Shown here: positions 4,515-54,172 of the stretch, one piece after another
How positions within the stretch are numbered: the stretch's first letter is position 1
Layout: each line of letters opens with the position of its first letter
NCBI GenBank assembly: GCA_015232315.1
Contig: JADFZZ010000021.1
Span: forward strand, 2,006-66,005
Length of the DNA stretch: 64,000 bases
Direction: 5' to 3'
Source: SAR324 cluster bacterium
Lineage (GTDB): Bacteria > SAR324 > NAC60-12
Program-made: the position numbers and the translations under genes
The notes under the pieces: model-generated
Seen by the model: the letters and a program-made list of their open reading frames with translations, nothing else
Told to the model about the DNA's origin: nothing
The model's database searches: none

Positions 4515-4550
4515 AATGGATTTCCTTGAAACGAAAGAAATATGAATGGA

Positions 4551-36900: not shown

Positions 36901-37693
36901 AAGCGAGGAAAACCGCGAAATCAGGAGGATATATGAATTGATTCTGAGCTCTTTTGAAGAAAGAAAGATCAATCAGATAATAGCTGATAATAGACAGACT
37001 CAATACGGCAAATACTGTTTGAATGTAAGTATCCCGGAAGAGTTCACGAACTGTTCTGCTCGGATAAGATACTTTTTTTATGATTTTGATTTGCTGAGTC
37101 TGGTGGCTGTTCAGAAGGTAAATTGAGAGGCCCCAGCCAATCATGATGCCTACAAAGGATAATAGAAACAGATACGGCGTACCCATGATTTTCAATAGCC
37201 ATGGTATGCTGAGTCCGCCCATAATGATCGCGATGATTTCGCCTGTTTCCAATATGGGACGCAGATTTTTGATTTGACGGACATTAAAAATTTTTGGAAC
37301 AAGTAATTCCCAGTAGAGTAAATATCCCATCACAAACTCTACCTCAAACCAGACCAGCGCGACAAAAACAGTCCATTTCTCAACACGGAGCGTCACCAAC
37401 CCGAAAACCAGCAATGTCATGAACGCAAACCCACCAATCCATAACATCAGCAGGGTCCGCACCGAAAAACTCCTTCTGAGGCGTAAAAAAATCCAGCCGG
37501 TGAGCGGGATGACAATCGCAAGCGAGGCATAAACCAGTGGCAGTTTATCCGCGCCATAACGGACAATAAACAGGGTTTGTGCGGCTGTGCCTGTATAGAT
37601 CCAGGGCACTCCCATGAACATAAAAGAGAACAATACGAGTAACAGTGTTGTGGATTGTTCTTCTGGATGAATCAATTTATCGAGCCATTTCAT
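33944..37693 (-). CDS. 1249-aa fusion protein: an N-terminal 12-TM transporter-like domain (MFS/TLC nucleotide-transporter-like) joined to a C-terminal HEAT/armadillo (PBS-lyase-like) repeat domain.
   Basis: About 12 hydrophobic helices in the first 430 aa. Downstream are repeated motifs of the type DPDVRLEVIRLIQQF, DPDINVRKSAIRAAGTMG and DEDVRHHIYESL, typical of HEAT repeats. ATGA overlap with the ABC transporter gene. Confidence 0.55.
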   Translation of the reverse strand: MKWLDKLIHPEEQSTTLLLVLFSFMFMGVPWIYTGTAAQTLFIVRYGADKLPLVYASLAIVIPLTGWIFLRLRRSFSVRTLLMLWIGGFAFMTLLVFGLVTLRVEKWTVFVALVWFEVEFVMGYLLYWELLVPKIFNVRQIKNLRPILETGEIIAIIMGGLSIPWLLKIMGTPYLFLLSFVGIMIGWGLSIYLLNSHQTQQIKIIKKVSYPSRTVRELFRDTYIQTVFAVLSLSIISYYLIDLSFFKRAQNQFIYPPDFAVFLAYFMASIGAVNLLYHVWTTKWPAQLNLFVKLAVLPISLVIGSGVVVFLGLLSAGENLIFVLICTIRFMERFLHSSLFKPSSEKLFEFLSPGDRDQTQTLAETIVIRFAAGLTGIVLIAVSYYFSLMVYALLTAALVISVLWLGGIYDLSKKYQKLLKESFQHHGIIDSELKDASNIQYLKEILPDSLPSQIVLILGALGNIKDPELESFLKHYLSHSDPDVRLEVIRLIQQFAVTGLLWDLESLLDTEPEPNVRGVILETMAILGDSTNMETFNKVLSALTDSSVHVRKGAFIGLLKSGGLTGAVAAGEKLNQLIVSANPSDRKFVCKILEKVGISGYYHTLLILLKDPDINVRKSAIRAAGTMGHEKLWPVVIDSLEIPALYHSATRALINGGKTVVPLLKERFYSPDQSEALLSKLVFLFGKMKDEQSLRILVENFDYPDEDVRHHIYESLQKREYSLPRKKITEIQDRIKDEVKDAVWTLAAIRDIGDILSGKLLVNALRNEIRKNVERIFLLMSFIYPRQKIKSTFELYLSGKDNREVIHSLAVLLPKSLEKMLFPLLEELDDETRLTQLRAIFPTETLGREERLREIIQRSDQYTASWTKACALYMIGDMQLTHLGNDIVHALKANHDIQQETAIWALARCKPTALAEYVVPLLDNSTGLVFRMARDALEKITFMDYLRTPEYVAAYDSASVDWFVEILLDAAELKARRLKAAQALGSVSKRSQRELLLKGSSVTDGTIRSEILRALQRTPLLNQEIIREHLESWIKIEINDLKLVLTAYKDLKIDDSMLELRRSLAKDVTYNRTRIFILLGIAEPDSRMRDWEFQSYRFPNISLSKTDKNDVAVVLRKYSDLTEFEWLEGVLLEFELDLLIKKMKQSFPKRQASQKWIRQIAFDTQNTFRSWTRSLALKHLVNEQQTDDIADIQQLARDSDSLIQETAIWGLSVLDPDLYKREMKEWAQSSSQHLIRLAIQISHEQEIPE

Positions 37694-39288
37694 GTCACCA
37701 ACTTTCCTTCTTCCATCCTGATCTGTTGATCTGCGAGATCATAATAATGATCATCATGTGAAACCACAATCACGATCTTCCCCCTGGCTTTTAACTGTGG
37801 AAGAAATTCATGATAAAACGCATCCCGAAACACGGGATCCTGATCGGCGGCCCATTCATCGAACACATAGACCGGTTTTTCTTCAATCAAGGCCAGTATC
37901 AAGGCCAGTCGACGTCGCTGGCCTGAAGATAAACTGTAATTTGAAAATTTATCTTCGTGAAATTCAGTTTTATGATCCAGGTGCATTTTAGACAACAATT
38001 CTTTCATTTGATCGGTATTTACGGGCTGGTCAGAATAAACCCTGTCAAACAGATGATAATCAGAAAATACCGCGGAAATCCATTCGCGCTGAACTCCCGC
38101 GGGTATGAGATGGGTGTTTCTGTAAACAGCGCCCTTACCTGGCGTATATAATCCCGTGAGCACTTTCACTAACGTAGATTTTCCGCTGCCATTGCCGCCA
38201 GTGATGAAATAAATATTGCCCGGTTGAAAGGTCAGGTTTATCGGCCCCAGGGTGAACAGGTGTTTCTTCTGAGCATCAAGATATTCAAACTGGATCTCTT
38301 CAAACCGGATCTCAGTCAACTCTTCCTGAACAAACGCTTCAGTGCCGGTCAAGGATTCCTGTCGTAAGTCCATAATTTCATCTTCCAACTCAAGGATCTT
38401 CCGCACAGAAAGGTTTGCAGTGGTTACCAGCGGCACAGCCTCCATCAAACGCCATAAGGGAATATATAAAACAATAGCGACCGCGGCGATCATGACCTCT
38501 TTGGTGATAACGCCGAACGTGGGCAATACATACACCACAATGATGATCAGAAAATTCCAGAACAGGAGGGTAAAGAGGTAATTCTTGTCAAATTCGGTTC
38601 CTACCTTTATTTTGACATCCCTCATTTGATCCAGTTCACGACACAATTCAAGATGATAGTAATCATCATTTTTCGCGTCATTCATGCGCAGTTCCTTAAA
38701 ACCGAAAATCTGATGCTGAATCGCGTTGAAGAGTTGGCGTTCCTGCTCTCGGCCTTTCTCAATAAAGGTTTGAATACTTGTCTGATGCAGATAATAAACA
38801 ACGATACAAACCAGCATAATAAGGGCAGTGATCAGCGCGACCTTGAACGAGATCCAGGCCAGAAAAATCAGAACCCCCAGAAAGATCACAAAATCGGTGA
38901 GCAGATAAGCTAATACATGGGAGGCATCAAGAATAACATCCATATCATAGGTTAACACATTGTTGATCTGGGATTTTTCAATTTTCTCAAAATCCCGCAA
39001 AGAGATTTTTCGTAAATGATCCAGTATTCCGTTGCGTATTTTTTCAAGAATTTCGTGAACCATTTGAAGAAGCTGGTTCTGTTGAAAACGATAGCTGACC
39101 ATCCACAATATCCAGCCTATAATGAACAGATTCGGGCGTATGGATATTTCCTGATTTTCATAATAGGCGATAGAACCAGCCAGAAAAGAAAACAGCCAAC
39201 TCATCAATCCCCCGGTGAGAATGGAGGATCCTATCAATAAACGAAATTTTTCAGGATTATGTTCCTGAAGTAAACGAAGGAGTTCCAT
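37690..39288 (-). CDS. ABC exporter half-transporter (TMD-NBD) of the SyrD/cyclic-peptide-transporter type.
   Basis: N-terminal 6-TM domain. Walker A GGNGSGKST. Signature LSSGQRRRLAL. Walker B region VYVFDEWAADQDPVFR, the family-typical DEWAADQDP motif. Confidence 0.85.
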   Translation of the reverse strand: MELLRLLQEHNPEKFRLLIGSSILTGGLMSWLFSFLAGSIAYYENQEISIRPNLFIIGWILWMVSYRFQQNQLLQMVHEILEKIRNGILDHLRKISLRDFEKIEKSQINNVLTYDMDVILDASHVLAYLLTDFVIFLGVLIFLAWISFKVALITALIMLVCIVVYYLHQTSIQTFIEKGREQERQLFNAIQHQIFGFKELRMNDAKNDDYYHLELCRELDQMRDVKIKVGTEFDKNYLFTLLFWNFLIIIVVYVLPTFGVITKEVMIAAVAIVLYIPLWRLMEAVPLVTTANLSVRKILELEDEIMDLRQESLTGTEAFVQEELTEIRFEEIQFEYLDAQKKHLFTLGPINLTFQPGNIYFITGGNGSGKSTLVKVLTGLYTPGKGAVYRNTHLIPAGVQREWISAVFSDYHLFDRVYSDQPVNTDQMKELLSKMHLDHKTEFHEDKFSNYSLSSGQRRRLALILALIEEKPVYVFDEWAADQDPVFRDAFYHEFLPQLKARGKIVIVVSHDDHYYDLADQQIRMEEGKLVT

Positions 39289-40882
39289 TGCTGATTTGCC
39301 CTTGCTCCATGGTTAATATTGTATCGGCAAGATGAAAGAAACGATCATCATGACTAATGACAAGAATCACTTTGTTTTGCTGTTTTAAGCGAGGAAGCAG
39401 TGTTTCATAAAAGTACAAACGAAATTTATGATCCTGTTCCGCGGCCCATTCATCAAAAATCACAATAGGCATATCCTCAAGCAATGCCCCAATCATCGCG
39501 AGTCTTTTTCTTTGCCCGGCGGAGAGCTTTATATTAGAAAATTTTCCATTTCCCCAATCCGTTTTGTTGTTGAGAGCCATCTCATCCAACAGCGAATAGA
39601 TCTGTTCTGCCTGAATATTTTCAATGCCGTATAACCCTTCAAACAAATGATAATCCGAAAAAATACAGGATGATAAATAGCGATAATCGCGCAAAGAGAC
39701 GATGGATTCATTCAAGAAAATCTGTCCTGCGGATGGTTCATAAAGTCCGGTGATGATTTTAACAAGCGTCGATTTTCCACTGCCATTCCCCCCAACCAGA
39801 AAGGTGATATGACCCGATCTCAATGTCATATTGACTGGTCCGATGACAAAGCCTTCCTCTTCCGGATATTGAAACTGAACATTCTCCAGACGCAGTGAAT
39901 GGATCTCAGGATTGATTTTGGGACGGATAGAGACATAGTCCGACAGTTCGGGTTTCTGATTGCGTAACATTTCATCCAGCTTATACAACCGATCCAGTGC
40001 GGCATCGCCCGTTGTGATAAAGGGCAAGGACGTATTGAACATTCTGACAGGCCCCCAGCACATGACAATCGCTGTCATGATTTCAGTTACAGTCTGTAAT
40101 GGCAGAAATATGGAAAAAATGAAAATTTCTGTAGCCAGAAACATAAAAAAGGCGCCATCCAGAAATAATTCAGTTTTACCGAATAACCGTGAAGAATTTA
40201 TTCCCTGATTTTTTAGTTGCTTGGCCAGGGGCATCAATTCATTGGAAAAAAAGAAATTACTTTTTTTTTCGCTTAATTTGAGTTCCTTAAAGCCATCCAG
40301 CAACTGCCCCATCACATGAAAGAAGCGGGATTCGGTGTCTGACATGGATTTCTGCTCACCCGCTATCAAATATCGACTTCCTGAGTAAACCCCCAGACCC
40401 ATGAGAAAAGTAATGAACACCGCGATCGCGACAGAAGAGGAAAGATGGACAACATACAGGAAACAGAATCCCACAAGCGTATAGGTCTGTAGCAGATTGA
40501 TATGATAACGCGCGGCCCGGGAAATGGACCGTGCGTCCTTGGTCATGGTCATGTAGAGATCTGAAATCTGATACCGTTCCAACTCAGACAGTTCCGACTG
40601 GCGTAACGCGTTCCCGATGCGTTGTCTCACTTGCTGCATCGTAAAATGAATTAATCGCGTATTCCTGTTCAGCGCAAACCATTTACTGCTTACATAAATG
40701 ATGGAACATACCAGATACACTCCTAGAAAATAAATATCAGATACATCCCACTGCAGGTCTCTTGTGGAATCATTAATAACAATCACCAGTCCGCCACCGG
40801 AGATCCCCGCGATCGCGGACAAACTCAACAATTTGATTTTTTCTTTCTGATTCTCTTTGCCAAACAGATTTGTCAGATTCAT
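39257..40882 (-). CDS. ABC exporter half-transporter (TMD-NBD) of the SyrD/cyclic-peptide-transporter type, partner of the ORF at 37690-39288.
   Basis: Walker A GGNGSGKST. Signature LSAGQRKRLAM. Walker B region IVIFDEWAAEQDHKFR. Overlaps the downstream paralogue by 32 nt. Confidence 0.85.
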   Translation of the reverse strand: MNLTNLFGKENQKEKIKLLSLSAIAGISGGGLVIVINDSTRDLQWDVSDIYFLGVYLVCSIIYVSSKWFALNRNTRLIHFTMQQVRQRIGNALRQSELSELERYQISDLYMTMTKDARSISRAARYHINLLQTYTLVGFCFLYVVHLSSSVAIAVFITFLMGLGVYSGSRYLIAGEQKSMSDTESRFFHVMGQLLDGFKELKLSEKKSNFFFSNELMPLAKQLKNQGINSSRLFGKTELFLDGAFFMFLATEIFIFSIFLPLQTVTEIMTAIVMCWGPVRMFNTSLPFITTGDAALDRLYKLDEMLRNQKPELSDYVSIRPKINPEIHSLRLENVQFQYPEEEGFVIGPVNMTLRSGHITFLVGGNGSGKSTLVKIITGLYEPSAGQIFLNESIVSLRDYRYLSSCIFSDYHLFEGLYGIENIQAEQIYSLLDEMALNNKTDWGNGKFSNIKLSAGQRKRLAMIGALLEDMPIVIFDEWAAEQDHKFRLYFYETLLPRLKQQNKVILVISHDDRFFHLADTILTMEQGQISNGTPSFTSGT

Positions 40883-40930
40883 ACAATCACAATATTTTTC
40901 AGGAAAACCAGGGGGTAAACGTAACGAAGA

Positions 40931-41100
40931 ATCCCCTGCTGTAAATAATTTGGTGATGAAATCCTGTGGCCCTCCACGATGTCATCCCCGTGAAAACGGG
41001 GATCCATGAGTGCGCCGATGGATTCCGTGTCAAGCACGGAATGACACCGTGCGATGGCTTGAATCGGTTGCCGTCACCAGAAAATTTACAGCAACAAAAA
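40931..41100 (+). repeat. 170-bp MITE-like structured repeat, copy 1.
   Basis: About 93% identical to 61591-61760. Imperfect ~20-bp terminal inverted repeats (TGCTGTAAATAATTTGGTGA ... TCACCAGAAAATTTACAGCA). Internal hairpins ATCCCCGT-GAAA-ACGGGGAT and TTCCGTG-TCAAG-CACGGAA. Confidence 0.6.
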
Positions 41101-41108
41101 TCCAGAGA

Positions 41109-41537
41109 TTAAAAGGTTTTCATAATTTTTCTGGAACCCTGAATGCATTCACAAAGGATAGTGATAATATTCAGTCCAACCTCCACATATTCATTGGCGA
41201 AATCCAGAAACGCGACAGCGTTTAAAGTCAGCAATTCGCTATCTTCATGCGCTATCATGGTTATTTTGCTTTCGTGAGGAGCCAGAATCGCCAATTGTCC
41301 TACGTATGCGCCACGGTCCAGCACCTCCAGACATTTTTCCTGTCCGTATATACCGATCTGTCCTGAGAGAACCAGAAACAGGTTTGTCATGGTATCACCA
41401 TTCCGGATCAACACTTCTTCCGAGTAAACCTTCAATTCTTCAAACCGGATTGCCATTTCTCCCAGCATTTCATCAGAAATTCCGGAAAAAACCTGGATGT
41501 TCTTTAAATACAGCACACGTTCAATTATTGGTCTCAT
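41109..41537 (-). CDS. Stand-alone cyclic-nucleotide-binding domain protein.
   Basis: 142 aa. cNMP-binding motifs LFLVLSGQIGIYG...GAYVGQLAIL. It sits at the head of the exporter operon. Confidence 0.7.
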   Translation of the reverse strand: MRPIIERVLYLKNIQVFSGISDEMLGEMAIRFEELKVYSEEVLIRNGDTMTNLFLVLSGQIGIYGQEKCLEVLDRGAYVGQLAILAPHESKITMIAHEDSELLTLNAVAFLDFANEYVEVGLNIITILCECIQGSRKIMKTF

Positions 41538-42036
41538 AGAATCCCTATATTTTGCTTTGATTTTCGTGAAACACTTCTGCTAAGTATCAGATCAAAAATC
41601 TTTCACCATTCTGAATTATTCCGTTTTCCTTAAAGGATCTCTCAGAGAGATGCCCTGACAAGAGCTGAATTACCATCACTGTTCTGTAACAATCCAGCGA
41701 TTTGTGTTCCTTTTTTTACGTGTGAAATGAAACCATAATTTGATCCAATTCAATTTTTAGAAGGTTTGTGGCCATTTTCATTGTCACTATCCTGTAATAC
41801 GGAAATTGACCGGCAATGAATTCGCGCCTGAAGGGATATCATGAAAGTGAATAGCCGGGAGAAAACACTGGCAATTGAGAGATAATTATGAAAGATAAGC
41901 GGACACACAAGAAGTTACGGCCTCCAATATCCGATTTGTCCCTGGCCACGTTGATGATATGGTGGAGTCGCGGAACCCATACCTTTCCAGTATCGCTTTT
42001 AAATGACAATTTGGTCATTCATTACGACGGACCACA

Positions 42037-42118
42037 ATCCGAACGGTGGATGTCGTTGATTGGATACAACCACCGGAATCCGAACGGTGGATGTCGTTGA
42101 TTGGATACAACCACCGGA
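42037..42118. repeat. Perfect 41-bp tandem duplication (2 copies).
   Basis: The unit atccgaacggtggatgtcgttgattggatacaaccaccgga is repeated head-to-tail in intergenic DNA. Confidence 0.6.
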
Positions 42119-42182
42119 TCGAGGAATCCCTGGAGACCATTCTCGATGAATGCAAACACCGCGGTATCACAAAGGAGCATTT

Positions 42183-42413
42183 ATGAATACAGCGACCATT
42201 CACATACCTGAAACATTACCCAGTGAGATAGTACAAGGATTGATTCAAGAATTTGAAAAAATGCTTGAATCAAAAGCTAATGAAGTGAATAGCCAGGAAT
42301 GGGCGAACTTAGTCGAAAGTGAGCAATCTCAAGCATGGTTGGAAGCTATGGTTGCTCAAGTGGATATTGAACACAGCGCAGAGAAAACAGAGAAGGGTGG
42401 ATGGAACAGATAA
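42183..42413 (+). CDS. Putative antitoxin of a type II TA pair (76 aa).
   Basis: AAGGAG RBS. Small and acidic. Its stop overlaps the start of the downstream RelE/ParE-like ORF. Family not recognised. Confidence 0.35.
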   Translation: MNTATIHIPETLPSEIVQGLIQEFEKMLESKANEVNSQEWANLVESEQSQAWLEAMVAQVDIEHSAEKTEKGGWNR

Positions 42414-42700
42414 AATCTTATCGCTCATCTCAATTTAAAAAATCCTTTGAAAAACTTCCTTTATCTGTGCAAGAGCAGGCTAAAAAAGCCTACGCTCTTT
42501 GGAGCGATAACCCTTTTCATAATTCCCTTGAATTCAAGGTTATCAATAAGAAATTAGATGTTTATTCCGCAAGAATTAGCCTGAATTGGAGAGTGTTAGG
42601 ACTTTTTTAAGGAGGCTTCCCCACCAGCGGTAGGGAACCACAAAATATTCGTAACGATTGGAAGAAAGGAGCAAGTATATGATTATTCGCACGTTATCCG
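42401..42700 (+). pseudogene. RelE/ParE-like toxin gene interrupted by a frameshift in a T6 run.
   Basis: The track ORF at 42401-42610 encodes ...VYSARISLNWRVLGLF and then stops. The next frame continues as ...KEASPPAVGNHKIFVTIGRKEQVYD, which resembles the conserved RelE C-terminal ...IGHRKDVY. The T run is at about 42603-42608. The reconstructed protein would be about 101 aa. Confidence 0.4.
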
Positions 42701-43065
42701 ATATTGAACAGACTGACCGTGATGTTGCCTGGGGGAATGGACAAAGCCGAAGATTTCTCATTGCCAGTGACGGAATGGGTTTCACGTTGACGGATACTGT
42801 CGTTCTGGCGGGTTCAGAATCAAGATTGCAATATCGTAATCACGTTGAAGCTTGTTATTGCATTGAAGGCGAAGGGGAAGTTGAGGTGGATGGTAAAATT
42901 TACCCGATCAAGACCGGCACAATGTATGCGCCAAATCAACACGATATTCATTATCTTCGAGCGACTAAGACAATGCGTCTGGTGTGTGTGTTTTCGCCTG
43001 CGTTACAAGGCCCTGAATCCCATCAACTGCAACACACAGACAATCCTTCCGCCTCAAGTTATTAA
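42679..43065 (+). CDS. Ectoine-synthase (EctC)-like cupin.
   Basis: 128 aa. MIIRTLSDIEQTDRDV...EACYCIEGEGEVEVDGKIYPIKTGTMYAPNQHDIHYLRATKTMRLVCVFSP aligns along its length with Halomonas EctC (MIVRNLEEA..TDR...EAVYCIEGEGEVE...DGKIWPIKPGDIY.LDQHDEH.LRA.KTM.L.CVF.P). AAAGGAG RBS. Confidence 0.85.
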   Translation: MIIRTLSDIEQTDRDVAWGNGQSRRFLIASDGMGFTLTDTVVLAGSESRLQYRNHVEACYCIEGEGEVEVDGKIYPIKTGTMYAPNQHDIHYLRATKTMRLVCVFSPALQGPESHQLQHTDNPSASSY

Positions 43066-43087
43066 CGGCATCGCTTCCGGGTTTCGC

Positions 43088-46000
43088 ATGAATTTTTCTC
43101 AGACTTCAATGACTGATTTTATAGAGCTTGTTCGTACACAGGCTTCCAAAAATCCGCACAATATTGCCGTTTATCACCGTAATCAGATACTCAACTATGA
43201 ACAGCTTGAGCGTCGTTCTAATCAACTCGCTCATTATTTACTGAGTCTGAAGATCCAACCTGAGCAGTTGATCGGTTTATGTCTGCCCCGTTCGATCCTG
43301 TTGACGGAGGCCATGCTTGGAATTCTAAAGGCCGGAGCGGCTTATGTGCCGTTAGATCCTGCTTATCCACGCAAACGTCTGGAAGACATGCTGGAAGACA
43401 GTCAACTGAATATTGTGCTCCTGAATGATGCCACCGATCATCTGATTTCATCGTTAAAAACCCTCAATTCTGAACTGCAAAAAATTCATCTGGCATTGAA
43501 CTGGGAGATCATTGCGTCATTCCCTTCAACGCCTCCCGATATCACCTTCCGTGACGACCAACTTGCCTATTGTTTATACACATCAGGTTCCACAGGAAAA
43601 CCCAAAGGGGTGCTGATGGAACACAAACCGTTGTCCAATTTAATCCACTGGCATCTTAAAAATCGTGTGACTCCCGCACGTCAATTGCAATTCGCACCTC
43701 TGAATTTTGACATTTCTTTTCAGGAGATTTTCGCGACCTGGTGTTCAGGTGGCAGTTTGTTTATCATAGACGATTCTGTCAGACGCAATCCATCCGCATT
43801 ATTGGATTTTATCTGCACCCACGCCATAGAAAAACTCTATTTGCCATTTACGGCCCTGCAACAATTGTCTATTATCGCACACGACAGTGATCACTACCCT
43901 GTGCAATTGCGTGAGGTGATTACCGCTGGAGAACAATTGCAGATTACTCCGGCAATTCGGGAACTCTTTACACGTACCGGTGCCCGGTTGCATCATCACT
44001 ATGGCGCAACGGAGTGTCAGGATGTTACCGCACTGGATCTGACAGGTGATCCGCAAGATTGGCCCTTACTCCCCTGCATTGGAAAAGCGATTGATAATAT
44101 ACAGATCCATATTCTGGATTCGCGGTTATCTCCGGTAGGCAGGGATGAAACAGGTGAACTTTATGTGGCGGGAGATGGACTGGCACGTGGTTATCTGCAT
44201 CGGCCGGAACTGAATGAGGCTCGATTTATCAACACACCAGATATCGGACGCCTTTATAAAACCTGCGACAGAGCCCGATACGGCACCGATGGACAGATAG
44301 AATTATTAGGACGATCTGATCATGCGGTGAAAATTCGTGGATTCAGCGTGGAGTTGGGGGAGATTGAAGCGATTTTACTGCAACATAAAGATATAGATCA
44401 GGCAGTGGTAGTGGCACATCAAGATGATTCCGGTCATAAACGACTGCTGGCCTATGTGGTGTTACACAAAAACAAAATACTATCCACCCAGCAATTGCAT
44501 GAACATCTGGAACAACGTTTACCTCAATACATGATTCCGGCAATGTTTATTCTCTTGGACGGCCTGCCTATGACGCCAACCGGCAAAGTCAACCGTGGTG
44601 ACTTACCACCACCTTTTATGCAGGTGCGTCCGGAAGTGGATCACAGTTTTGAATCGGCACGTACCCCCCTGGAAGAAACCTTGACTACAATCTGGCAAAA
44701 CGTGTTGAACATTGAACAGATCGGAATCCATGATGATTTTTTTTCACTGGGAGGAGATTCCTTTTTGCTGATTACATTATTCAGCACGATAAAGAATCAA
44801 CTGGGAACGGATGTCCCACTGGCTGATTTGCTACAAGAACTCAACATTGCCGATCTGGCCAACTTATTACAGCATAAGGCCCCGCATCCAAGCCATACCG
44901 CTTTGTCAGTCAATGAACTACAGGGCTATGCTATCTGTCCGCTTCAATCTCAGCTTCCGGCAGTTACAGAACTGAATAAGCCAAAAAATATTTTATTAAC
45001 AGGTGCGACGGGATTTCTGGGTTCATTCCTGTTACAGGAATTGCTGGAGAAAACCGATGCTGATATTTATTGTCTGGTGCGGGGCAAGGACCCCTCACAG
45101 GCGTTACAACGTTTGCTCGACAGTCAGAAACAGCGTGAGTTATCCCTTTCAACAGATTTCCACAAACGACTGCATGTGGTGTGTGGTGATATGGCCAAAC
45201 CCCTTTTGGGGGTAACCCGAAAACAATGGAAGCATCTGACTGAACTGATTGACAGTGTTTATCATGCCGCGGCAAATATTAACATGTTATACCCTTATCC
45301 GGTACTTCACGCCATCAATGTTCAGGGAACACAGGAGATTATTAAGTTTTCCACGCATTCACGTTGCAAAACCTTGCACTATATTTCCAGCACAGCCATT
45401 TTTGAAGCTCAGGGATTTTTTCATCGACAACAGCCGATTCCTGAAAATATTGATATTCAGGAATGTGCCCGTATTTACGGCGGTTATGCTCAAAGTAAAT
45501 GGGTTGCTGAAAAACTGTTGCATCAGGCTCGGGAAAAAGGGCTTGCTGTGAGTATCTATCGTTTGGGGATGTTGACAGGACACAGCCGTTCCGGCGTATC
45601 CAATATCAACGACATGATGTGCAAACTGCTCAAACAGTTTGTGGTACAAAAACGCATCCCTGAATTGACCACTCCACTGGATATGACTCCGGTTGATTAT
45701 GTAGCTCAGGTGATAGTCCATTTATCACAACAGACTCCGGAAAATGGCTACTGTTTTCATGTTGTGAATCCTCAACCGCCTTCTTTTTTTGAATTATACC
45801 GGTTCTTCAACCAATTGGGATATCCTCTGCAAATGATCAATTATGCTCAATGGATTGATCAACTTGAAAACCTGTCACTGGATTCAAAGGAAAACGCTTT
45901 GGGAACGATGTTGCCCATTTTTACGGAAAGCGTTGAGGGCAAAACCTACCTGGAATTTTCTTCTTTATGTCAGAACTTTAATCATGATAATACTCACCTT

Positions 46001-46102
46001 GGATTAAGCAACAGTTCTATACGTTGCTCTGCGGTAACACCGGATTTGTTGTCAACCTATTTGAATTATTTTGTACGGCAGGGCTTTTTGAGCGCTCCCT
46101 AA
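43088..46102 (+). CDS. Single-module NRPS with domains A - PCP - R (thioester reductase).
   Basis: A domain: LAYCLYTSGSTGKPKGV, FDISFQEIF, YGATE, TGKVNRGDL. PCP: FFSLGGDSFLL. R domain: LTGATGFLGSFLL and YAQSKWVAEKLL. The upstream part of the track ORF (42845-43087) overlaps ectC and was discarded. Confidence 0.9.
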   Translation: MNFSQTSMTDFIELVRTQASKNPHNIAVYHRNQILNYEQLERRSNQLAHYLLSLKIQPEQLIGLCLPRSILLTEAMLGILKAGAAYVPLDPAYPRKRLEDMLEDSQLNIVLLNDATDHLISSLKTLNSELQKIHLALNWEIIASFPSTPPDITFRDDQLAYCLYTSGSTGKPKGVLMEHKPLSNLIHWHLKNRVTPARQLQFAPLNFDISFQEIFATWCSGGSLFIIDDSVRRNPSALLDFICTHAIEKLYLPFTALQQLSIIAHDSDHYPVQLREVITAGEQLQITPAIRELFTRTGARLHHHYGATECQDVTALDLTGDPQDWPLLPCIGKAIDNIQIHILDSRLSPVGRDETGELYVAGDGLARGYLHRPELNEARFINTPDIGRLYKTCDRARYGTDGQIELLGRSDHAVKIRGFSVELGEIEAILLQHKDIDQAVVVAHQDDSGHKRLLAYVVLHKNKILSTQQLHEHLEQRLPQYMIPAMFILLDGLPMTPTGKVNRGDLPPPFMQVRPEVDHSFESARTPLEETLTTIWQNVLNIEQIGIHDDFFSLGGDSFLLITLFSTIKNQLGTDVPLADLLQELNIADLANLLQHKAPHPSHTALSVNELQGYAICPLQSQLPAVTELNKPKNILLTGATGFLGSFLLQELLEKTDADIYCLVRGKDPSQALQRLLDSQKQRELSLSTDFHKRLHVVCGDMAKPLLGVTRKQWKHLTELIDSVYHAAANINMLYPYPVLHAINVQGTQEIIKFSTHSRCKTLHYISSTAIFEAQGFFHRQQPIPENIDIQECARIYGGYAQSKWVAEKLLHQAREKGLAVSIYRLGMLTGHSRSGVSNINDMMCKLLKQFVVQKRIPELTTPLDMTPVDYVAQVIVHLSQQTPENGYCFHVVNPQPPSFFELYRFFNQLGYPLQMINYAQWIDQLENLSLDSKENALGTMLPIFTESVEGKTYLEFSSLCQNFNHDNTHLGLSNSSIRCSAVTPDLLSTYLNYFVRQGFLSAP

Positions 46103-46124
46103 CAACCTCTTCTCGTGGATCTAC

Positions 46125-47432
46125 ATGCTGAATAAATCACCAAAATCGCGTGCTTTTTTCGAACGTGCGCAAAAAGTTATTCCTTATGGTGTCAGTTCCA
46201 GTCATCGTTACTGGGGCGATTATACCCCGGTATTGCAACGTGGAAATGGAGCGTATGTGTATGATTTCGATGGCAATCGTTATATTGATTACCGTCTGGG
46301 GTTTGGGCCTGTCATTCTGGGACACGCTCATCCTTACGTCAATCAGCGAGTCATGGAAGCGATCCAGCAGGGGGTTACATTTGCGGCGACCCAACCCTAT
46401 GAAGTCAGTGTCGCGGAACGCATTATCGCTATGTGCCCGTTTGTTGACATGGTACGACTGGACAACACCGGTTCCGATGCGACACGGCATGCGTTACGCC
46501 TTGCCCGTGGTTACACCGGACGAGACCTGGTGGTAAAATTTGAAGGTGCCTATCATGGCGATTACGATTACATGTTATGGACCACTCCGGACAGCATGAA
46601 AAGTCAGGTAGGCAACCGCAACCGGCCAATTCCCCATAAAACCAGTTTGGGTGTGCCCGATCTGCTGGCGCAGTTGCTCCTGCCCGCCGTATGGAATGAT
46701 CGCGAAGGGATCACCGCCTTATTGCAGGAAAAAGGTGATGCCATTGCGGCTATTATTGTTGAACCCATCCTGGCTAATGCCGGAGGTTTAATGCCTGCGC
46801 CAGGATTTCTGGAATTTTTACGCACACAATGTGATCAATATGGCATTGTCCTCATTTTTGATGAAGTCAAAACTGGATTTCGGATTGCACCTGGTGGCGC
46901 CAGTGAATATTTTGGCGTGATTCCGGATATTGTCACCTATGCCAAAGCAATGGCCAATGGATATCCTGTCTCTGCCGTGGGCGGAAAACGCAAGATCATG
47001 ATGGCACTGGCGCCTGGCAAAGTCGTTCATGCGGGAACCTACAACGGAAACGTCGTGGTCACTTCCGCCGCTGACGCAACCCTGGAATATATGCAGACTC
47101 ATGATGTATTTGGTCATCTCAATCAGATTGGCCGGCAACTCATGGATGGACTGGGCGAAATTCTTTCCCGCCACAGTATCCCGCATCATATCCATGGAGT
47201 GCCCGCTTTATTTGGATTGACGTTGTCCACAAACAATCCCACGGATTGGCGTCAGGTGGTGGATACCAATCTGGAGTTATCAGAGAAACTCCTCATGGAA
47301 TTGGTCAATGCCGGTATCATGACTGATTCTGATCCCCAGCAAACCTGGTATGTGTGTGACGCCCATACCACCGAGGATATTGCCGAGACACTTGATAAAT
47401 TTGAAATTGCCTTACGCAATGCAAAGAATTAA
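46125..47432 (+). CDS. Class-III aminotransferase of the glutamate-1-semialdehyde aminomutase (HemL)-like subfamily.
   Basis: Motifs RLDNTGSDATRHALRLARGYTGRDLVVKFEGAYHGDYD, IFDEVKTGFR and TYAKAMANGYP (PLP lysine region). Confidence 0.85.
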   Translation: MLNKSPKSRAFFERAQKVIPYGVSSSHRYWGDYTPVLQRGNGAYVYDFDGNRYIDYRLGFGPVILGHAHPYVNQRVMEAIQQGVTFAATQPYEVSVAERIIAMCPFVDMVRLDNTGSDATRHALRLARGYTGRDLVVKFEGAYHGDYDYMLWTTPDSMKSQVGNRNRPIPHKTSLGVPDLLAQLLLPAVWNDREGITALLQEKGDAIAAIIVEPILANAGGLMPAPGFLEFLRTQCDQYGIVLIFDEVKTGFRIAPGGASEYFGVIPDIVTYAKAMANGYPVSAVGGKRKIMMALAPGKVVHAGTYNGNVVVTSAADATLEYMQTHDVFGHLNQIGRQLMDGLGEILSRHSIPHHIHGVPALFGLTLSTNNPTDWRQVVDTNLELSEKLLMELVNAGIMTDSDPQQTWYVCDAHTTEDIAETLDKFEIALRNAKN

Positions 47433-47497
47433 TTGCGTAATATTAATAAAGTGATGATCACCCTTGATTTTTTAATAATGCAAAGAGGAGTTAACAA

Positions 47498-48619
47498 ATG
47501 AGTGTTGCTGTCAACAGTTATAATGAATGGTCCCCCTTAAAGGAAGTCATTGTAGGTTCGGCCTATAACTACACATTGCCGCCGATTGATCAGTCCTTCA
47601 AATTATTTTATCATGATCTGATCAATCCCAAATTCCCTCTCGAAGGCACACGCGTACTCAAGCAACAATATGTCGAGGAATTGGAGGAGGATCTCAATAA
47701 TCTGGTCGCGGTTTTTGAACAACTGGGAGTCAAAGTACACCGTCCTGCACAATTGCCTGAAGCCTCTGTCATTCGCACGCCTTACTGGGAATCAACCGCG
47801 TTGGCCGCACTGAATATCCGTGATCAGGCGATTATCGCTGGTAATGAAATCATTGAAACCGCTCCGATGCTACGTTCCAGATATTTTGAAAATGATTTGC
47901 TCAAACCTGTTTTTTACGAGTATTTCAAGGCCGGTTCCAAATGGACACTGATGCCCAGACCGATGATGCTGGAAAAATCGTTTGATTTATCCTATGTGGC
48001 GCATCCTGAAGAGGGTATTAAGAACGCTTATGATATTAATAACCTTGCCCGTGATTACCCACAGCCGTCTTCTCCCTACGATATAGGATACGAATTGCTG
48101 TTCGATGGCGCTCAATGTATGCGTTTTGGTGAGGACTGGATCGTTGATGTTTCCAACTACAACCATGAATTGGGTTTTCAGTGGCTTCAACGACATTTTG
48201 AAGGAAAAATCAGGATGCACAAACTGGATAAAATCACTGACAATCATATTGATACCACCGTGATCCCTCTACGGCCAGGCACTCTGTTAATGCGCTACCC
48301 CCAGGATGTCAAAAAATTGCCTGCGGCCCTGCAGAAATGGGATATTCTGTATATCCCTGAGCCCGATATGAAAAACTTTCCCCAATACGATGACGATGAT
48401 TTGGTGTTATCCAGTAATCTGATTGATGCCAATGTATTTTCAGTGGATGGCGATAAAATGATTGTTAATTCCTTGTACCCTGAATTAATCAAGTTGCTTG
48501 ACAAACACAAATTTACCACCATTCCGGTACGCCATCGCCATCGCCAACTGGTGAGTGGCGGTTTTCATTGTTTTACCCTGGATACCGTTCGGGCCGGTGG
48601 CATGGAAAAATATTTTTAA
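47498..48619 (+). CDS. Amidinotransferase (glycine/inosamine amidinotransferase family: AGAT, StrB1, CyrA, SxtG-like).
   Basis: SYNEWSPLKEVIVG corresponds to AGAT SYNEWDPLEEVIVG. Also GNEIIETAPMLRSRYFE. His motif HIDTTV. Active-site Cys motif SGGFHCFTLD (AGAT GGGFHCWTCD). Confidence 0.85.
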   Translation: MSVAVNSYNEWSPLKEVIVGSAYNYTLPPIDQSFKLFYHDLINPKFPLEGTRVLKQQYVEELEEDLNNLVAVFEQLGVKVHRPAQLPEASVIRTPYWESTALAALNIRDQAIIAGNEIIETAPMLRSRYFENDLLKPVFYEYFKAGSKWTLMPRPMMLEKSFDLSYVAHPEEGIKNAYDINNLARDYPQPSSPYDIGYELLFDGAQCMRFGEDWIVDVSNYNHELGFQWLQRHFEGKIRMHKLDKITDNHIDTTVIPLRPGTLLMRYPQDVKKLPAALQKWDILYIPEPDMKNFPQYDDDDLVLSSNLIDANVFSVDGDKMIVNSLYPELIKLLDKHKFTTIPVRHRHRQLVSGGFHCFTLDTVRAGGMEKYF

Positions 48620-48799: not shown

Positions 48800-50863
48800 T
48801 CACGCGGAATGGGAATCTTCCTCCACCAGGAGCTCTGATGATTTCTGACGATTCTTCATGAGAGGAAGCATCGCATTGACAGATCCTGCGCCCACACTGG
48901 TTATAAACAAAATCACCGAAGCCAGAATTTTGAAGTTAAACAGGAATATTCCGGTAATTCCGATGGCACCGGGAATGATGGCGGTTAAAAAACCATGACG
49001 TGTATTGTCAGCCATTTCCGTAGCCAGTTCAAACAGAGTCGGAACATGTTTCAGCGTATGATCCATCAAAACGATACCGGCAGTATCCAGGGCCGCAGTC
49101 GATGCACCCTGAATGGAAACCGACACATTAGCCGTTTTTAAGGCGACTGTGTCATTGATGCCATCCCCTATAAAACATATTGATTTTCCCTGTAGTTGAA
49201 GTTCCTGAATAATTTTTGCTTTATCCTGGGGCAATACTTCTGAAAAATAATGCTCAATGCCTAGCTCCTGAGCCAGTTTGCGGGTAGGTGCTTCATGATC
49301 TCCGGAGATAATATAGGTGGCGAGTCCCAGTTCCTTGAGTCGCCCGATCACAGATTGTGCTTCAGGACGTAAGGAAACATGGAGTTCCAGAATGCCAATC
49401 AATTGCTGGTTGCAGGCCACATACACCAGTCCGTAACCATTGTCTTCAGCCGTTTGTCGGATTTTCTGAACCAGTGCGCCGGGAGAGAGTGAGATCGCTT
49501 CGTTCGTCATAAAACGCTCACTTCCCACATGAATCTGAGCGGTTCCCACTTTCACCTTAATGCCGTACCCGATTTCATAAAGAGCATCCTCAATCTCCGG
49601 TATCATGATCTGGCACGCCTTAGCCTGTTTGACAATGGCTTTGGCAATGGGGTGTGACTGTTTATGTTCTGCCGCCGCCGCATATTGCAGAATCACTTCT
49701 TCCGGTTCATCATTCAGGAGGTAAATCTGACCCACTTGAGGCTCCTCCAGGGTCAGGGTTCCCGTCTTGTCAAACACAACCGTATCCACGTCCTTTAATA
49801 ATTCCAGACAGCGTCCATCCTTCACCAGAATCCCCTGCTCGGACGCAAGTCTCAGATAATTCAATACTCCCAGGGGAACCGTCATTCGGGTGGTCTCCAT
49901 AAAGTTACAACTGACCATGGCTGTGGCACTGATCGGTCCCATCATCGCCCATGTCACCCCACCCATCGCAATGGTTGGACCTGCCAGCATATCCGCGAAC
50001 TGGATGGTTCTGGCTTCCACAGAGGACTTGAAATCAGCCGTATTCTGTAAAATCCTGCCGATCTTGGCCGCCGAGGTTTCACTGGCTTCATGAACCACCT
50101 TTACCTGAATTTTTCCGCTAATCACCATCGTGGCGGCAAGCACGGAATCACCGGATACTTTTTCTACCGGTTGAGACTCTCCTGTCAGAATATGTTGATC
50201 GACCGAAGCAAAGCCCTGCACCACGATCCCGTCAATCGGAATCATTTCACCAGCCTGAAGGATAATGATATCTCCCGACTTCAGGGTTTCAAACGGAATT
50301 TCGATCTCTGTCCCTTCCTTGAACAACCAGACAAATTGAGGCTGCTGACCAAAAATATTTATCATTTGTTTTTTGGACATATCCTCTGTTTTGAGCAACA
50401 GTTTGTTGCTTAAAAAAAAGGCAATGGATGCCAGTGATCCAATCCAGTAATATCCGGTAGCAAAGGTTCCTACGATGGCAATGCTGTCCACCGCACTGGC
50501 TCGAATCCGTTTTTCATGTATCAGATTATGAAAGGTGTCTTTGAATATGGGCAGGCTGACATAGATGAGCAAGGGCAGGGTAATCAGATTGATGGGCGTA
50601 TAAACCAATGCGCCCAGTGTTGCTGTTCCCAAAGTAACGCCAGCGACTTTTATATAATGATCGAGTTCCTCCTCAGTCTCCTTATGGGACAGAACCTTTG
50701 AAGATTCCGGAATGATTGGAATGTTCGGTTCTTGTTCTCCGGAATCGGATAAAGAGAGTTTTTCAGAAACCAGAATGGGCTTGGAGGTTGGGTTTTCGCC
50801 TTCTTTGTAGGCGGAATATCCGGCATAAGCCAATCCGCCTAAAATCAATATTGCTGGAAGCAT
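48800..50863 (-). CDS. P-type ATPase (687 aa), paralogue of the ATPase at 1-1990.
   Basis: Motifs VVFDKTGTLT, ISGDHEAPTRKLAQELGIEHYFSEVLPQDKAKIIQELQ and GDGINDTVAL. There is no N-terminal heavy-metal-associated domain and no CPC motif in the TM region. The N-terminus MLPAILILGGLAYAGYSAY resembles that of the other copy. Confidence 0.85.
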   Translation of the reverse strand: MLPAILILGGLAYAGYSAYKEGENPTSKPILVSEKLSLSDSGEQEPNIPIIPESSKVLSHKETEEELDHYIKVAGVTLGTATLGALVYTPINLITLPLLIYVSLPIFKDTFHNLIHEKRIRASAVDSIAIVGTFATGYYWIGSLASIAFFLSNKLLLKTEDMSKKQMINIFGQQPQFVWLFKEGTEIEIPFETLKSGDIIILQAGEMIPIDGIVVQGFASVDQHILTGESQPVEKVSGDSVLAATMVISGKIQVKVVHEASETSAAKIGRILQNTADFKSSVEARTIQFADMLAGPTIAMGGVTWAMMGPISATAMVSCNFMETTRMTVPLGVLNYLRLASEQGILVKDGRCLELLKDVDTVVFDKTGTLTLEEPQVGQIYLLNDEPEEVILQYAAAAEHKQSHPIAKAIVKQAKACQIMIPEIEDALYEIGYGIKVKVGTAQIHVGSERFMTNEAISLSPGALVQKIRQTAEDNGYGLVYVACNQQLIGILELHVSLRPEAQSVIGRLKELGLATYIISGDHEAPTRKLAQELGIEHYFSEVLPQDKAKIIQELQLQGKSICFIGDGINDTVALKTANVSVSIQGASTAALDTAGIVLMDHTLKHVPTLFELATEMADNTRHGFLTAIIPGAIGITGIFLFNFKILASVILFITSVGAGSVNAMLPLMKNRQKSSELLVEEDSHSA

Positions 50864-53265: not shown

Positions 53266-54172
53266 GAAACCTTTTTGTAAAAATTAGATATATTTTCTGA
53301 CAGTAAGCCGAATCATGGCAATTCGTACCATGTTTTCAGCAGTTTCAATAAGAATTTCAAAGTCTTTAGCAAGTCGTCGGAATCCTCCAAACCAGGCGAG
53401 AGTTCGTTCAACAATCCAACGTTTGGGTAAAATGGTCATTTTCCCATCGTTGGAGTTTTTGGGTTGATCCTTGACGGTTTTGGAAATATCAAGGCGTTTT
53501 CCCAGTTGTTCCCGGACAAAGTCCACGGAGGTTCCCTGGTAGCCGCCATCGGCGGAAAAAGCGTCAAGCGAAGGATAACGTTCCAGCGCTTCCTGGAAGA
53601 CACGGCATCCCTCCACCGTGTCGGATTTATTGGCGGCATGTACGATGATATGGAGCAGGTTTCCCAGAATGTTGACACAGATATGGCGTTTGCGGCCTTT
53701 CACTTTTTTCCCGCCGTCAATGCCACGATCGTCGCTATCATATGGGGTTTTCACACTTTGGGAATCGACGATTCCATAGGAAGGTGTGGCGGAACGCCCT
53801 TGTTTTTGACGGGCAAGGGAGTTGAGAGCATCCAGGATTTTTTGCCATGTTCCATTCCGACACCACTTGCGATAGTGGTCATAGACCGTTTGCCAAGGCG
53901 GAAAATCATGAGGAAGATACTCCCATTGACAACCCGTTTTGTTGATATAAAAGATGGCATTGATAATCGTTCGTCGGCTGTGAATATGGGAAGACCCCCG
54001 ACCATCCTTGGGACGGAGAAAGGGTTCGATCACGGACCATTCGGCATCGGTAACGTCGCTGGGATACATAGTACCTCGTAGGGAGTAGGTTGGAAATACC
54101 CCCTTTATACCATCTTTATGACAATTGATGAAGAATCTAAAAAATAACTTTTTTTTTACCAAAAGGCTTCTT
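53266..54172 (-). mobile_element. IS5-family insertion sequence (about 0.9 kb) with imperfect ~19-bp terminal inverted repeats.
   Basis: Left end AGAAACCTTTTTGTAAAAA. The reverse complement of the right end is about AGAAGCCTTTTGGTAAAAA. It contains a single DDE transposase gene. Confidence 0.65.
53284..54069 (-). CDS. IS5-family DDE transposase (IS1031/IS427-like, with the N-terminal DUF4096-type region).
   Basis: MYPSDVTDAEWSVIEPFLRP...INKTGCQWEYLP...WQTVYDHYRKW is typical of IS5 transposases. The C-terminal DDE region is ...RWIVERTLAWF.... The track ORF extends 31 codons upstream into the inverted repeat. The ATG at 54069 is preferred. Confidence 0.8.
   Translation of the reverse strand: MYPSDVTDAEWSVIEPFLRPKDGRGSSHIHSRRTIINAIFYINKTGCQWEYLPHDFPPWQTVYDHYRKWCRNGTWQKILDALNSLARQKQGRSATPSYGIVDSQSVKTPYDSDDRGIDGGKKVKGRKRHICVNILGNLLHIIVHAANKSDTVEGCRVFQEALERYPSLDAFSADGGYQGTSVDFVREQLGKRLDISKTVKDQPKNSNDGKMTILPKRWIVERTLAWFGGFRRLAKDFEILIETAENMVRIAMIRLTVRKYI

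Follow-up and report, generated by a model that had tools for sequence, protein, structure and literature searches.

We analyzed a 64,000-nucleotide stretch of the genome of a SAR324 cluster bacterium (assembly GCA_015232315.1, contig JADFZZ010000021.1, positions 2,006 to 66,005; hereafter ‘the window’) and found four co-directional, closely packed genes at 42679-48619 on the plus strand, which encode an EctC-like cupin, a single-module nonribosomal peptide synthetase (NRPS), a class-III aminotransferase and an amidinotransferase. The NRPS is composed of an adenylation (A) domain, a peptidyl carrier protein (PCP) and a thioester reductase (R) domain. We propose that the four genes form a self-contained cassette that would convert glutamine into a small, doubly cationic cyclic amidine carrying a guanidine group, and we assign a probability of about one half to this explanation as a whole.

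In the proposed pathway, the EctC-like cupin would cyclize its substrate, most likely L-glutamine, with loss of water to 5-amino-3,4-dihydro-2H-pyrrole-2-carboxylate (abbreviated ADPC), which the A domain would adenylate and load onto the PCP. The R domain would then release the thioester as an alpha-amidino aldehyde, and the aminotransferase would convert the aldehyde to an aminomethyl group, giving 5-(aminomethyl)-2-amino-1-pyrroline. Finally, the amidinotransferase would move an amidino group from arginine to this amine, yielding 2-amino-5-(guanidinomethyl)-1-pyrroline (C6H13N5, [M+H]+ 156.1244). The order of these steps, the identities of the substrate (glutamine) and the intermediate (ADPC), the structure of the end product and its physiological role, if any, are inferences from the evidence described below.

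Organization and recurrence of the cassette

The EctC-like gene (42679..43065, 128 aa) is followed by the NRPS gene (43088..46102, 1004 aa), the gene for a class-III (HemL-like) aminotransferase of the GntE clade (46125..47432, 435 aa) and the gene for an L-arginine-dependent amidinotransferase of the AGAT/StrB1/SxtG family (47498..48619, 373 aa). Together they span 5.9 kb with intergenic gaps of 22, 22 and 65 nt, and ribosome-binding sites precede the ATG of the EctC-like gene (AAGGAG) and that of the amidinotransferase gene (AGAGGAG). An earlier annotation of this DNA (hereafter ‘the original prediction’) had named the same four enzymes as consecutive genes with short gaps. Pfam, NCBIfam and structure matches uphold its enzyme assignments, and the gaps on the single strand bear out the close spacing. 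Two details are corrected here: the operon does not begin at 42183, which is the ATG of an unrelated 76-aa open reading frame (ORF; 42183-42413), but at 42679; and it is the end of the EctC-like gene, not its start, that lies just upstream of the NRPS gene, at a distance of 22 nt instead of 23 nt.

Four additional loci were found to hold the same gene set, arranged in two orders and with identities of 42-87%. The complete genome of Ectothiorhodospiraceae bacterium BW-2 (locus L001) has all four genes in the identical order, and the encoded proteins share 72, 61, 83 and 87% identity with the EctC-like protein, NRPS, aminotransferase and amidinotransferase of the window, respectively. In ‘Candidatus Albibeggiatoa psychrophila’ (L058), the EctC-like, NRPS and aminotransferase genes follow one another as in the window, but the contig stops within the aminotransferase gene. 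In a metagenome locus from JGI (L002/L003) all four genes are present but rearranged, with the aminotransferase, amidinotransferase and NRPS genes followed by the EctC-like gene on the opposite strand. The fourth locus, L108, consists of a P-type ATPase gene and the EctC-like, A-PCP-R and aminotransferase genes, with no adjacent amidinotransferase gene. The nearest relatives of the cassette genes belong to gammaproteobacterial sulfur bacteria.

Given that the set was kept together after rearrangement, we consider it very likely that the cassette constitutes one pathway. The opposing view, that the four genes are chance neighbors, could draw on the local signals: the promoter and terminator scan gave counts not above those of shuffled sequence, and no riboswitch or other RNA was detected either in the whole window at gathering thresholds or in the stretch leading up to 42679 (41400-43200) at E up to 1. 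However, chance would have to account for the recurrence in four more loci and two orders as well as for the short gaps in the window, and we regard it as extremely improbable. We also scanned metagenomes with the amidinotransferase clade and obtained no new cassette copies; the only two close matches were both of the type in which an amidinotransferase gene is joined by a decarboxylase and an ATPase gene. No account of the cassette was found in the literature searched.

The EctC-like protein and the adenylation domain

The EctC-like protein matched Pfam Ectoine_synth (PF06339; 2.6e-44, 151 bits, cut-off 27) and NCBIfam NF009806 (155.9 bits, cut-off 128). It aligned with the EctC structure of P. 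lautus (5onn; E 2.4e-36) at about 50% identity, a level at which residue mapping onto the crystal structure can be considered reliable. It has been reported that six residues contacting N-gamma-acetyl-2,4-diaminobutyrate (N-gamma-ADABA), namely Trp21, Arg25, Asn38, Thr40, Tyr52 and Glu57, do not vary among 437 EctCs from ect clusters (PMC6344544). The original prediction took the protein for a relative of genuine EctC, and this comparison supports it in part. The iron ligands are kept (Glu57, Tyr83 and His91, equivalent to Glu57, Tyr84 and His92 of P. lautus EctC), as are four of the six substrate contacts (Arg25, Thr40, Tyr52 and Glu57), whereas Trp21 is replaced by Gly and Asn38 by Thr. A Trp stands three residues before the lost Trp21, so that the protein carries the signature W18-G-N-G21 together with Thr38. 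This pattern is found in all cassette copies, is invariant in 32 aligned relatives, and occurs in nearly all of 80 genome loci that we compared, with hosts among the cyanobacteria (many), proteobacteria and actinobacteria.

No ectA- or ectB-type gene was found beside the EctC-like gene in the loci inspected. The cassette likewise has no GNAT gene, and no EctB model was among the top 25 NCBIfam matches of its aminotransferase. Given that Trp21 and Asn38 are replaced throughout the subfamily and that ectA/ectB neighbors are absent, the substrate of the EctC-like enzyme is probably not N-gamma-ADABA. Other neighbors of EctC-like genes encode EamA exporters, ATP-grasp ligases and adenylating enzymes, and such surroundings, without ectA or ectB, suggest that the substrate is drawn from primary metabolism. 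To our knowledge, glutamine is the only proteinogenic amino acid known to be cyclized by EctC. The EctC of H. elongata forms ADPC from glutamine reversibly, as a side activity in which the equilibrium lies on the glutamine side (PMC5924519), and Athv28, an EctC homolog of the anthelvencin cluster, produces ADPC from glutamine in vitro (PMC8627960).

The NRPS was recognized by TIGR01733 (361 bits, cut-off 317) and by the thioester reductase model TIGR01746 (308.8 bits, cut-off 213). On the plus strand, its A domain lies at about 43133-44587 (AMP-binding, 9e-71; AMP-binding_C), its PCP at about 44678-44869 (PP-binding, with the GGDS serine at 44759-44761) and its R domain at about 44987-46090 (NAD_binding_4, 1.8e-63). 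The core motifs YTSGSTGKPKG, GGDS (residues 555-558), TGATGFLG (residue 638) and YAQSK (residue 800) are present. By alignment to GrsA, we read the specificity code of the A domain as DIQYIAH(D)VTK, with Tyr at position 278; the GrsA reference sequence was validated in that its own known code, DAWTIAAICK, was recovered from the standard positions. The cassette code thus reads as proline-like, the proline-type codes being DVQ[LFY]IAHVVK, plus an extra acidic residue (Asp). It is unlike any standard basic or acidic amino-acid code known to us. The extra Asp would fit the amidinium group of ADPC.

We also observed that the two signature motifs of this A domain, FD[IV][SA][FI][HQ]E[IL]F and YG[AS][ST]ExQDV[TA], occur beside the EctC-like gene in nine of the 80 genome loci, with the consensus code D-I/V-H/Q-Y-I/M/T-A-H/N-(D)V-T-K. 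A signature A domain is present in every cassette copy, L108 having the A5 part, YGSTECQDVT. Generic GPTE-type A5 motifs numbered only six across all 80 loci, and there is no second signature A domain in the window. The assembly lines that contain the signature domain differ from one another: a Nostoc has C-A-PCP-KS-AT, Iningainema has C-A-PCP-C-A-PCP-C, Mesorhizobium has A-PCP-KS-AT-DH-KR-ACP-TE, and one Thiotrichaceae genome has an A-PCP standing alone. At E 1e-15, no aminotransferase or amidinotransferase match was obtained in seven signature genome loci, the exception being the incomplete cassette copy L058.

Given that the EctC-like gene and the signature A domain are paired in loci without an aminotransferase or amidinotransferase, EctC would act before the NRPS and provide its substrate. 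We therefore judge it likely that the EctC-like enzyme supplies the amino acid loaded by the A domain; that this intermediate is ADPC we put at roughly even odds. Loading at the cost of ATP, and the irreversible reduction after it, would draw an unfavorable cyclization forward, which could explain why the pairing of EctC and A domain is so tight. The original prediction, by contrast, had implied that EctC cyclizes an N-acyl or guanidino diamine late in the pathway, a role not supported in view of its recurrence beside A domains of the same code in these seven loci.

The size of the ring can be considered from the actinobacterial loci, in which the EctC-like gene adjoins a gene for a dehydrogenase. 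The best matches of this enzyme were the L-prolyl-PCP dehydrogenases PigA (348 bits) and RedW (341 bits), both below cut-off. This neighbor indicates a five-membered ring and, together with the proline-like code, makes a five-membered, proline-like ring the probable product of EctC.

These results bear on the alternative that the EctC-like protein is a true ectoine synthase, so that ectoine, with its six-membered ring, would be carried through the aldehyde and the amine to a guanidinomethyl-tetrahydropyrimidine. There is precedent in an orphan EctC of P. syringae, which complemented an ectC mutant (PMC5924519). The cassette protein itself passes the NCBIfam cut-off for ectoine synthase and, besides the iron ligands, retains Arg25, Thr40, Tyr52 and Phe106. 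In addition, one cassette copy resides in a genome of the Ectothiorhodospiraceae, a family that includes ectoine producers. However, Trp21 and Asn38, strict in EctCs of ect clusters, are replaced across the whole subfamily, many of whose hosts are cyanobacteria, and the loci inspected have no ectA/ectB-type gene. Moreover, the A code is proline-like, the actinobacterial relatives adjoin the prolyl-PCP-dehydrogenase-like gene, and the cassette aminotransferase is 81% identical to an enzyme that acts on a five-membered ring aldehyde. We thus consider an ectoine-derived product unlikely and favor cyclization of glutamine to ADPC.

Two further groups of EctC-like genes were noted. In cyanobacterial loci with no adjacent NRPS gene (L016, L018, L030, L022 and L044), the EctC-like gene, near position 10001, adjoins genes for EamA-family exporters, ATP-grasp ligases or a Rieske oxygenase, which suggests that the product of cyanobacterial EctC-like enzymes without an NRPS is also exported or otherwise ligated. 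In the actinobacterial locus L091 (2677-13086), the EctC-like gene is accompanied by genes for an AONS-like enzyme, a KS, an amino-acid adenylating enzyme and the PigA/RedW-like prolyl-PCP dehydrogenase, and by TrpD/TrpA/TrpC-like genes; L064, L065 and L067 have similar ORF layouts. Such a cluster may be a route to an aminopyrrole-type product. L091, the one scanned among the Streptomyces loci L065, L067 and L091, is by its gene content (AONS-like, KS, TrpD/A/C-like and PigA-like genes) a different cluster from that of anthelvencin.

The aminotransferase and the amidinotransferase

The aminotransferase matched Pfam Aminotran_3 (1.2e-72) and the NCBIfam GntE equivalog NF041362 (703 bits, cut-off 525). 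It is 81% identical to P0122, the aminotransferase within the complete guanitoxin clusters L005-L008, which carry YqcI/YcgG, desaturase-type, TauD, methyltransferase, aldolase-type, kinase and MatE genes. The BW-2 cassette copy is 83% identical to it, and a copy in locus L009 is 80.6% identical. The aminotransferases of the cassette, the guanitoxin clusters and L009 form one clade, and Chloroflexi proteins (about 60% identical, in unrelated contexts) fall outside it. The substrate of GntE is a five-membered cyclic guanidine carbaldehyde, isosteric with the ADPC aldehyde. According to the guanitoxin literature, GntE performs the transamination step after retro-aldol cleavage by GntG. The clade appears to be specialized in aldehydes adjoining an amidine or guanidine nitrogen. 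The other gnt families (YqcI_YcgG, FA_desaturase, TauD, NNMT_PNMT_TEMT, APH and Beta_elim_lyase) were all missing next to the cassette, which is not a guanitoxin (gnt) cluster.

The L009 copy belongs to a different compact cassette, at 1720-8490 of that locus and also present in L010. It comprises a PF27704 guanidinoacetate-N-methyltransferase-like gene, an A-nitroreductase-PCP-R NRPS gene, the GntE-clade aminotransferase gene (80.6%) and a formyltransferase-like gene, and its A domain has no Asp235.

The amidinotransferase gave no Pfam match, but it could be matched over its full length (residues 4-373) to the structures of SxtG (6u1r, 2e-51), StrB1 (1bwd, 2e-50), AGAT (1jdw, 4e-47) and HsvA (5wpi), with E-values ranging to 1e-42. 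Its catalytic triad is intact: Asp203, His250 and Cys358 align with Asp179, His227 and Cys332 of StrB1, in the numbering of the StrB1 structure paper. The active-site residues Asp109 and Asp252 are also kept. The two residue checks that the original prediction set itself, on the triad here and on the metal ligands of the EctC-like protein, thus come out in its favor. The protein is 87% identical to the BW-2 copy and about 55% identical to many annotated glycine amidinotransferases, including that of Moorena producens JHB. Its closest relatives were found in two contexts only, namely this cassette (77-87%) and a trio with a decarboxylase and a P-type ATPase (74%). A free primary amine, made by a decarboxylase or otherwise, would fit as the acceptor, and amidination as the last step is plausible.

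The trio itself was observed at L004 5526-9757 and L093 2136-6357, where the neighbors of the amidinotransferase gene are one that resembles genes for pyruvoyl-type histidine decarboxylases (TIGR00541, 168 bits, below cut-off) and one for an ATPase that lacks the CPx metal motif. It may represent a second small guanidine pathway, in which decarboxylation is followed by amidination.

With the four assignments holding and the triad intact, the conversion of an acid through an aldehyde and an amine to a guanidine, which was the central idea of the original prediction, is supported as plausible. We consider this aldehyde-amine-guanidine sequence reasonably likely. If amidination came first instead, a guanidino acid would be made from 2,3-diaminopropionate or 2,4-diaminobutyrate, EctC would close it to a cyclic guanidine acid, and the A-PCP-R protein and aminotransferase would turn it into the aminomethyl cyclic guanidine of the guanitoxin type, so that the core of guanitoxin would be reached by an alternative route. 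At 81% identity to a genuine GntE, the substrate of the aminotransferase could be the identical aldehyde; the A code suits a small cationic ring, and the amidinotransferase is intact. Against this order, the seven loci that hold EctC and the signature A domain without an amidinotransferase match imply that the A-domain substrate needs no amidination, and L108 has no adjacent amidinotransferase gene. The cassette also contains no gene for the supply of either diamino acid, and closure of a guanidine ring loses ammonia rather than water, which is not known EctC chemistry (mechanism: PMC6344544). Amidination as the first step therefore seems to us doubtful, to about the same degree as the ectoine route, and we retain amidination of the ADPC-derived amine as the preferred order.

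Points against the proposed pathway

Several points weigh against the route from glutamine through ADPC. Positions 330/331 of the A-domain code hinge on gap placement, so that the code is DIQYIAHVTK if a one-residue Asp insertion is placed before position 330, or DIQYIAHDVK if the alignment is ungapped. NF041362 also reaches Chloroflexi proteins of about 55-60% identity in unrelated contexts (e.g. L012), so the GntE name given by this model is weak by itself; the argument for the aminotransferase rests on the 81% identity. Given that L108 has no adjacent amidinotransferase gene, amidination may be optional. The complementation of ectoine synthesis by the solitary P. syringae EctC means that orphan EctCs can make ectoine (PMC5924519). 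Finally, the substrate-contacting residues of Athv28 are reportedly well conserved with EctC (PMC8627960), and Athv28 may be a canonical-type EctC.

The polyketide synthase arm and neighboring genes

The original prediction placed the product of the cassette in a polyketide synthase (PKS) arm of the same window. This PKS/NRPS arm (1987-18918, minus strand) comprises a chorismate-lyase-like gene and genes for an AMP ligase, a megasynthase, a class-III aminotransferase and a stand-alone thioester reductase. The megasynthase (4085 aa; A-ACP-KS-AT-DH-KR-MT-ACP-C) ends in a C domain without an obvious acceptor. Beyond the arm, up to 22267 on the minus strand, lie genes for two sulfotransferases and radical SAM enzymes. 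In its logic the arm may be similar to pathways for sulfated products primed by 4-hydroxybenzoate, such as the Hphpa unit of aeruginoguanidine. We also compared the aminotransferase and reductase of the arm with those of the cassette, and rejected the idea that they are duplicates, given that they are only 29% and 35% identical.

The original prediction further implied an order in which reduction, transamination and amidination of a standard amino acid come first, and cyclization by EctC then gives a product that feeds the PKS arm. The gene set permits such an order, and the megasynthase, ending in a C domain with no A-PCP downstream, could take a free amine. PKS-related genes also occur near cassette genes elsewhere: in L002, a trans-AT-like gene and FkbH/I/J/K-type methoxymalonyl-ACP genes lie just upstream of the cassette genes, and L013 and L106 combine EctC-like genes with PKS/NRPS genes in loci that also hold sulfotransferases. 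In the window, moreover, a paralogous ATPase gene (41% identical) ends the PKS arm. However, the pairing of EctC with the A domain in loci without an aminotransferase or amidinotransferase puts EctC upstream, and the A code matches no standard basic or acidic amino-acid code known to us. There is no PKS inside 10 kb of the cassette in BW-2, 24 kb of unrelated genes separate the cassette from the arm in the window, and after amidination no primary amine would remain for the C domain. We consider this order slightly less probable even than the ectoine route. Use of the product by the PKS arm, whose enzymes are not close to those of the cassette, is likewise unsupported, although we keep a link as a possibility because of the PKS-related genes of L002, the L013 and L106 loci and the terminal C domain without an acceptor. 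A cassette that works by itself on glutamine thus remains our preferred explanation.

The genes between the PKS arm and the cassette encode a sulfatase, LRR, Band 7, DUF697 and HEAT-repeat proteins, ABC transporters and cNMP-binding proteins. At 33489-41537 on the minus strand, tandem ABC-transporter genes (37690-40882) lie between genes for cNMP-binding proteins (33489-33947 and 41109-41537), and a 1249-aa HEAT-repeat protein is also encoded there. Locus L013 (215-20045) of the Thiotrichaceae encodes a KS-AT-KR-ACP-sulfotransferase-C-A-PCP-TE protein, two Rieske oxygenases, the EctC-like protein, a carbamoyltransferase, an ATPase, a DUF697 protein and a stand-alone signature A-PCP. This tailoring set is reminiscent of saxitoxin-type enzymes.

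Directly upstream of the cassette is a short ParE-like toxin ORF (42401-42610; Pfam ParE_like, 23.4 bits, just below cut-off), and the stretch 42183-42610 is a toxin-antitoxin remnant that is not part of the cassette. It is immediately preceded by a perfect 41-bp tandem duplication (42036-42118; 2.0 copies, 100% match), and an IS4/5 transposase gene lies downstream of the cassette (53284-54162, minus strand). The BW-2 cassette is flanked by signaling genes, a DUF423 gene, transposase genes and a HigB-type toxin-antitoxin pair; IS66 and DDE transposases and the HigB/HTH pair are located at L001 11718-15509, and a fragment copy of the amidinotransferase C-terminus, 83% identical, at L001 15816-16190. 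These traces of mobile elements, here and in BW-2, fit horizontal mobility of the cassette.

Convergent to the cassette, at 48800-50863 on the minus strand, is a gene for a 687-aa P-type ATPase of a P1B-like subfamily, which we regard as a candidate accessory gene. The protein matched the heavy-metal P1B model TIGR01525 (377.8 bits, cut-off 346) and has the DKTGT and GDGIND motifs, but SCNF replaces CPC, the CPx metal motif. Homologs of 39-47% identity occur beside EctC-like or amidinotransferase genes in L003, L004/L093, L013, L106 and L108, and in the members at L003 5886-7940, L004 7718-9757, L013 12322-14538, L106 17884-20019 and L108 2-2071 the CPx motif is replaced by SCNF, ANFS or similar. 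The 41% identical paralog in the window (1 to about 1990, minus strand) begins beside the stop codon of the PKS-arm reductase gene and runs past the left window edge. Export of the cationic product, or self-protection, would be our guess for the role of this ATPase.

Implications

We tentatively suggest a wider interpretation, less probable than the explanation of the cassette itself. The EctC with the WGNG/Thr38 pattern and the dedicated A-domain code may together be a general, unrecognized module for the incorporation of ADPC. Here the module would be joined to a GntE-type aminotransferase and an amidinotransferase as a mobile four-gene route in sulfur-oxidizing gammaproteobacteria, leading to a new amidine/guanidine dication that resembles the guanitoxin core and is exported by the CPx-less P-type ATPase. 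If this speculation is true, the orphan EctC genes of cyanobacteria, proteobacteria and actinobacteria, long a puzzle, would be accounted for. A 2018 review called the function of solitary EctC-type proteins unresolved (PMC5924519), and the pairing of EctC with the A domain offers a testable answer, namely that a dedicated adenylation domain receives a proline-like cyclic amidine acid from these enzymes. The proposed inputs are only glutamine, arginine, ATP, NADPH and an amino donor, so the predicted new metabolite would be easy to screen for by expression and mass spectrometry. The A-domain signature could also enter specificity predictors.

That a GntE-clade gene, at 81% identity, occurs outside cyanobacteria is relevant to automatic annotation and to efforts to detect guanitoxin genes in the environment. 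NF041362 would assign the cassette gene to guanitoxin biosynthesis even though the pathway is missing, which is a risk of over-annotation in gene-based toxin surveys.

Comparison with known systems

The literature searched contained neither this combination of genes, nor the product predicted here, nor a conserved pairing between EctC and a single A-domain code, and a 2025 review of cyanobacterial guanidine natural products mentions neither ectoine nor GntE. Each enzyme family and each step nevertheless has precedent, in Athv28, MxcG/MxcL, GntE and AGAT/StrB1/SxtG.

Canonical EctC of ectABC clusters shares with the cassette protein the cupin fold, the iron ligands and, in the case of P. lautus EctC, about 50% identity. 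The cassette protein differs in that it has no ectA/ectB neighbors, has Trp21 and Asn38 replaced, and is paired with NRPS adenylation domains. A closer parallel is Athv28 (Ant) of the Streptomyces anthelvencin pathway, which, like the proposed cassette enzyme, is an EctC-family cupin recruited to supply a cyclic amidine amino acid that is then activated at its carboxyl group and incorporated. In anthelvencin, however, an amide bond links ADPC into a pyrrolamide, whereas the cassette would reduce, transaminate and amidinate it.

The conversion of the loaded acid follows a logic shared with MxcG/MxcL of myxochelin B biosynthesis and with other pairs of an A-PCP-R protein and an aminotransferase, in which a thioester reductase produces an aldehyde and a class-III aminotransferase converts it to an amine. 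MxcG was the best NCBIfam match of the NRPS (622.6 bits), far below the cut-off of that model. The cassette differs from MxcG/MxcL in having no C domain and no acyl partner, and its proposed substrate is a free imino acid, whereas that of MxcG/MxcL is lysine.

In guanitoxin biosynthesis, GntE converts an aldehyde on a ring carbon adjoining a guanidine nitrogen to an aminomethyl group, and the cassette aminotransferase is proposed to do likewise next to an amidine nitrogen. The cassette is, however, without GntB, C and D (ring formation), the aldolase GntG, the methyltransferase GntF, the N-hydroxylase GntA, the kinase GntI and GntJ. Its aldehyde would come from the NRPS reductase and not from retro-aldol cleavage, and its amine would be amidinated, whereas that of guanitoxin is dimethylated.

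The last enzyme belongs to the same fold family as AGAT, StrB1, SxtG, CyrA and HsvA, and the Asp-His-Cys triad is conserved. The difference would lie in the acceptor: glycine, an inosamine phosphate or a saxitoxin precursor in the known enzymes, and, as the gene context suggests, a heterocyclic methylamine in the cassette enzyme.

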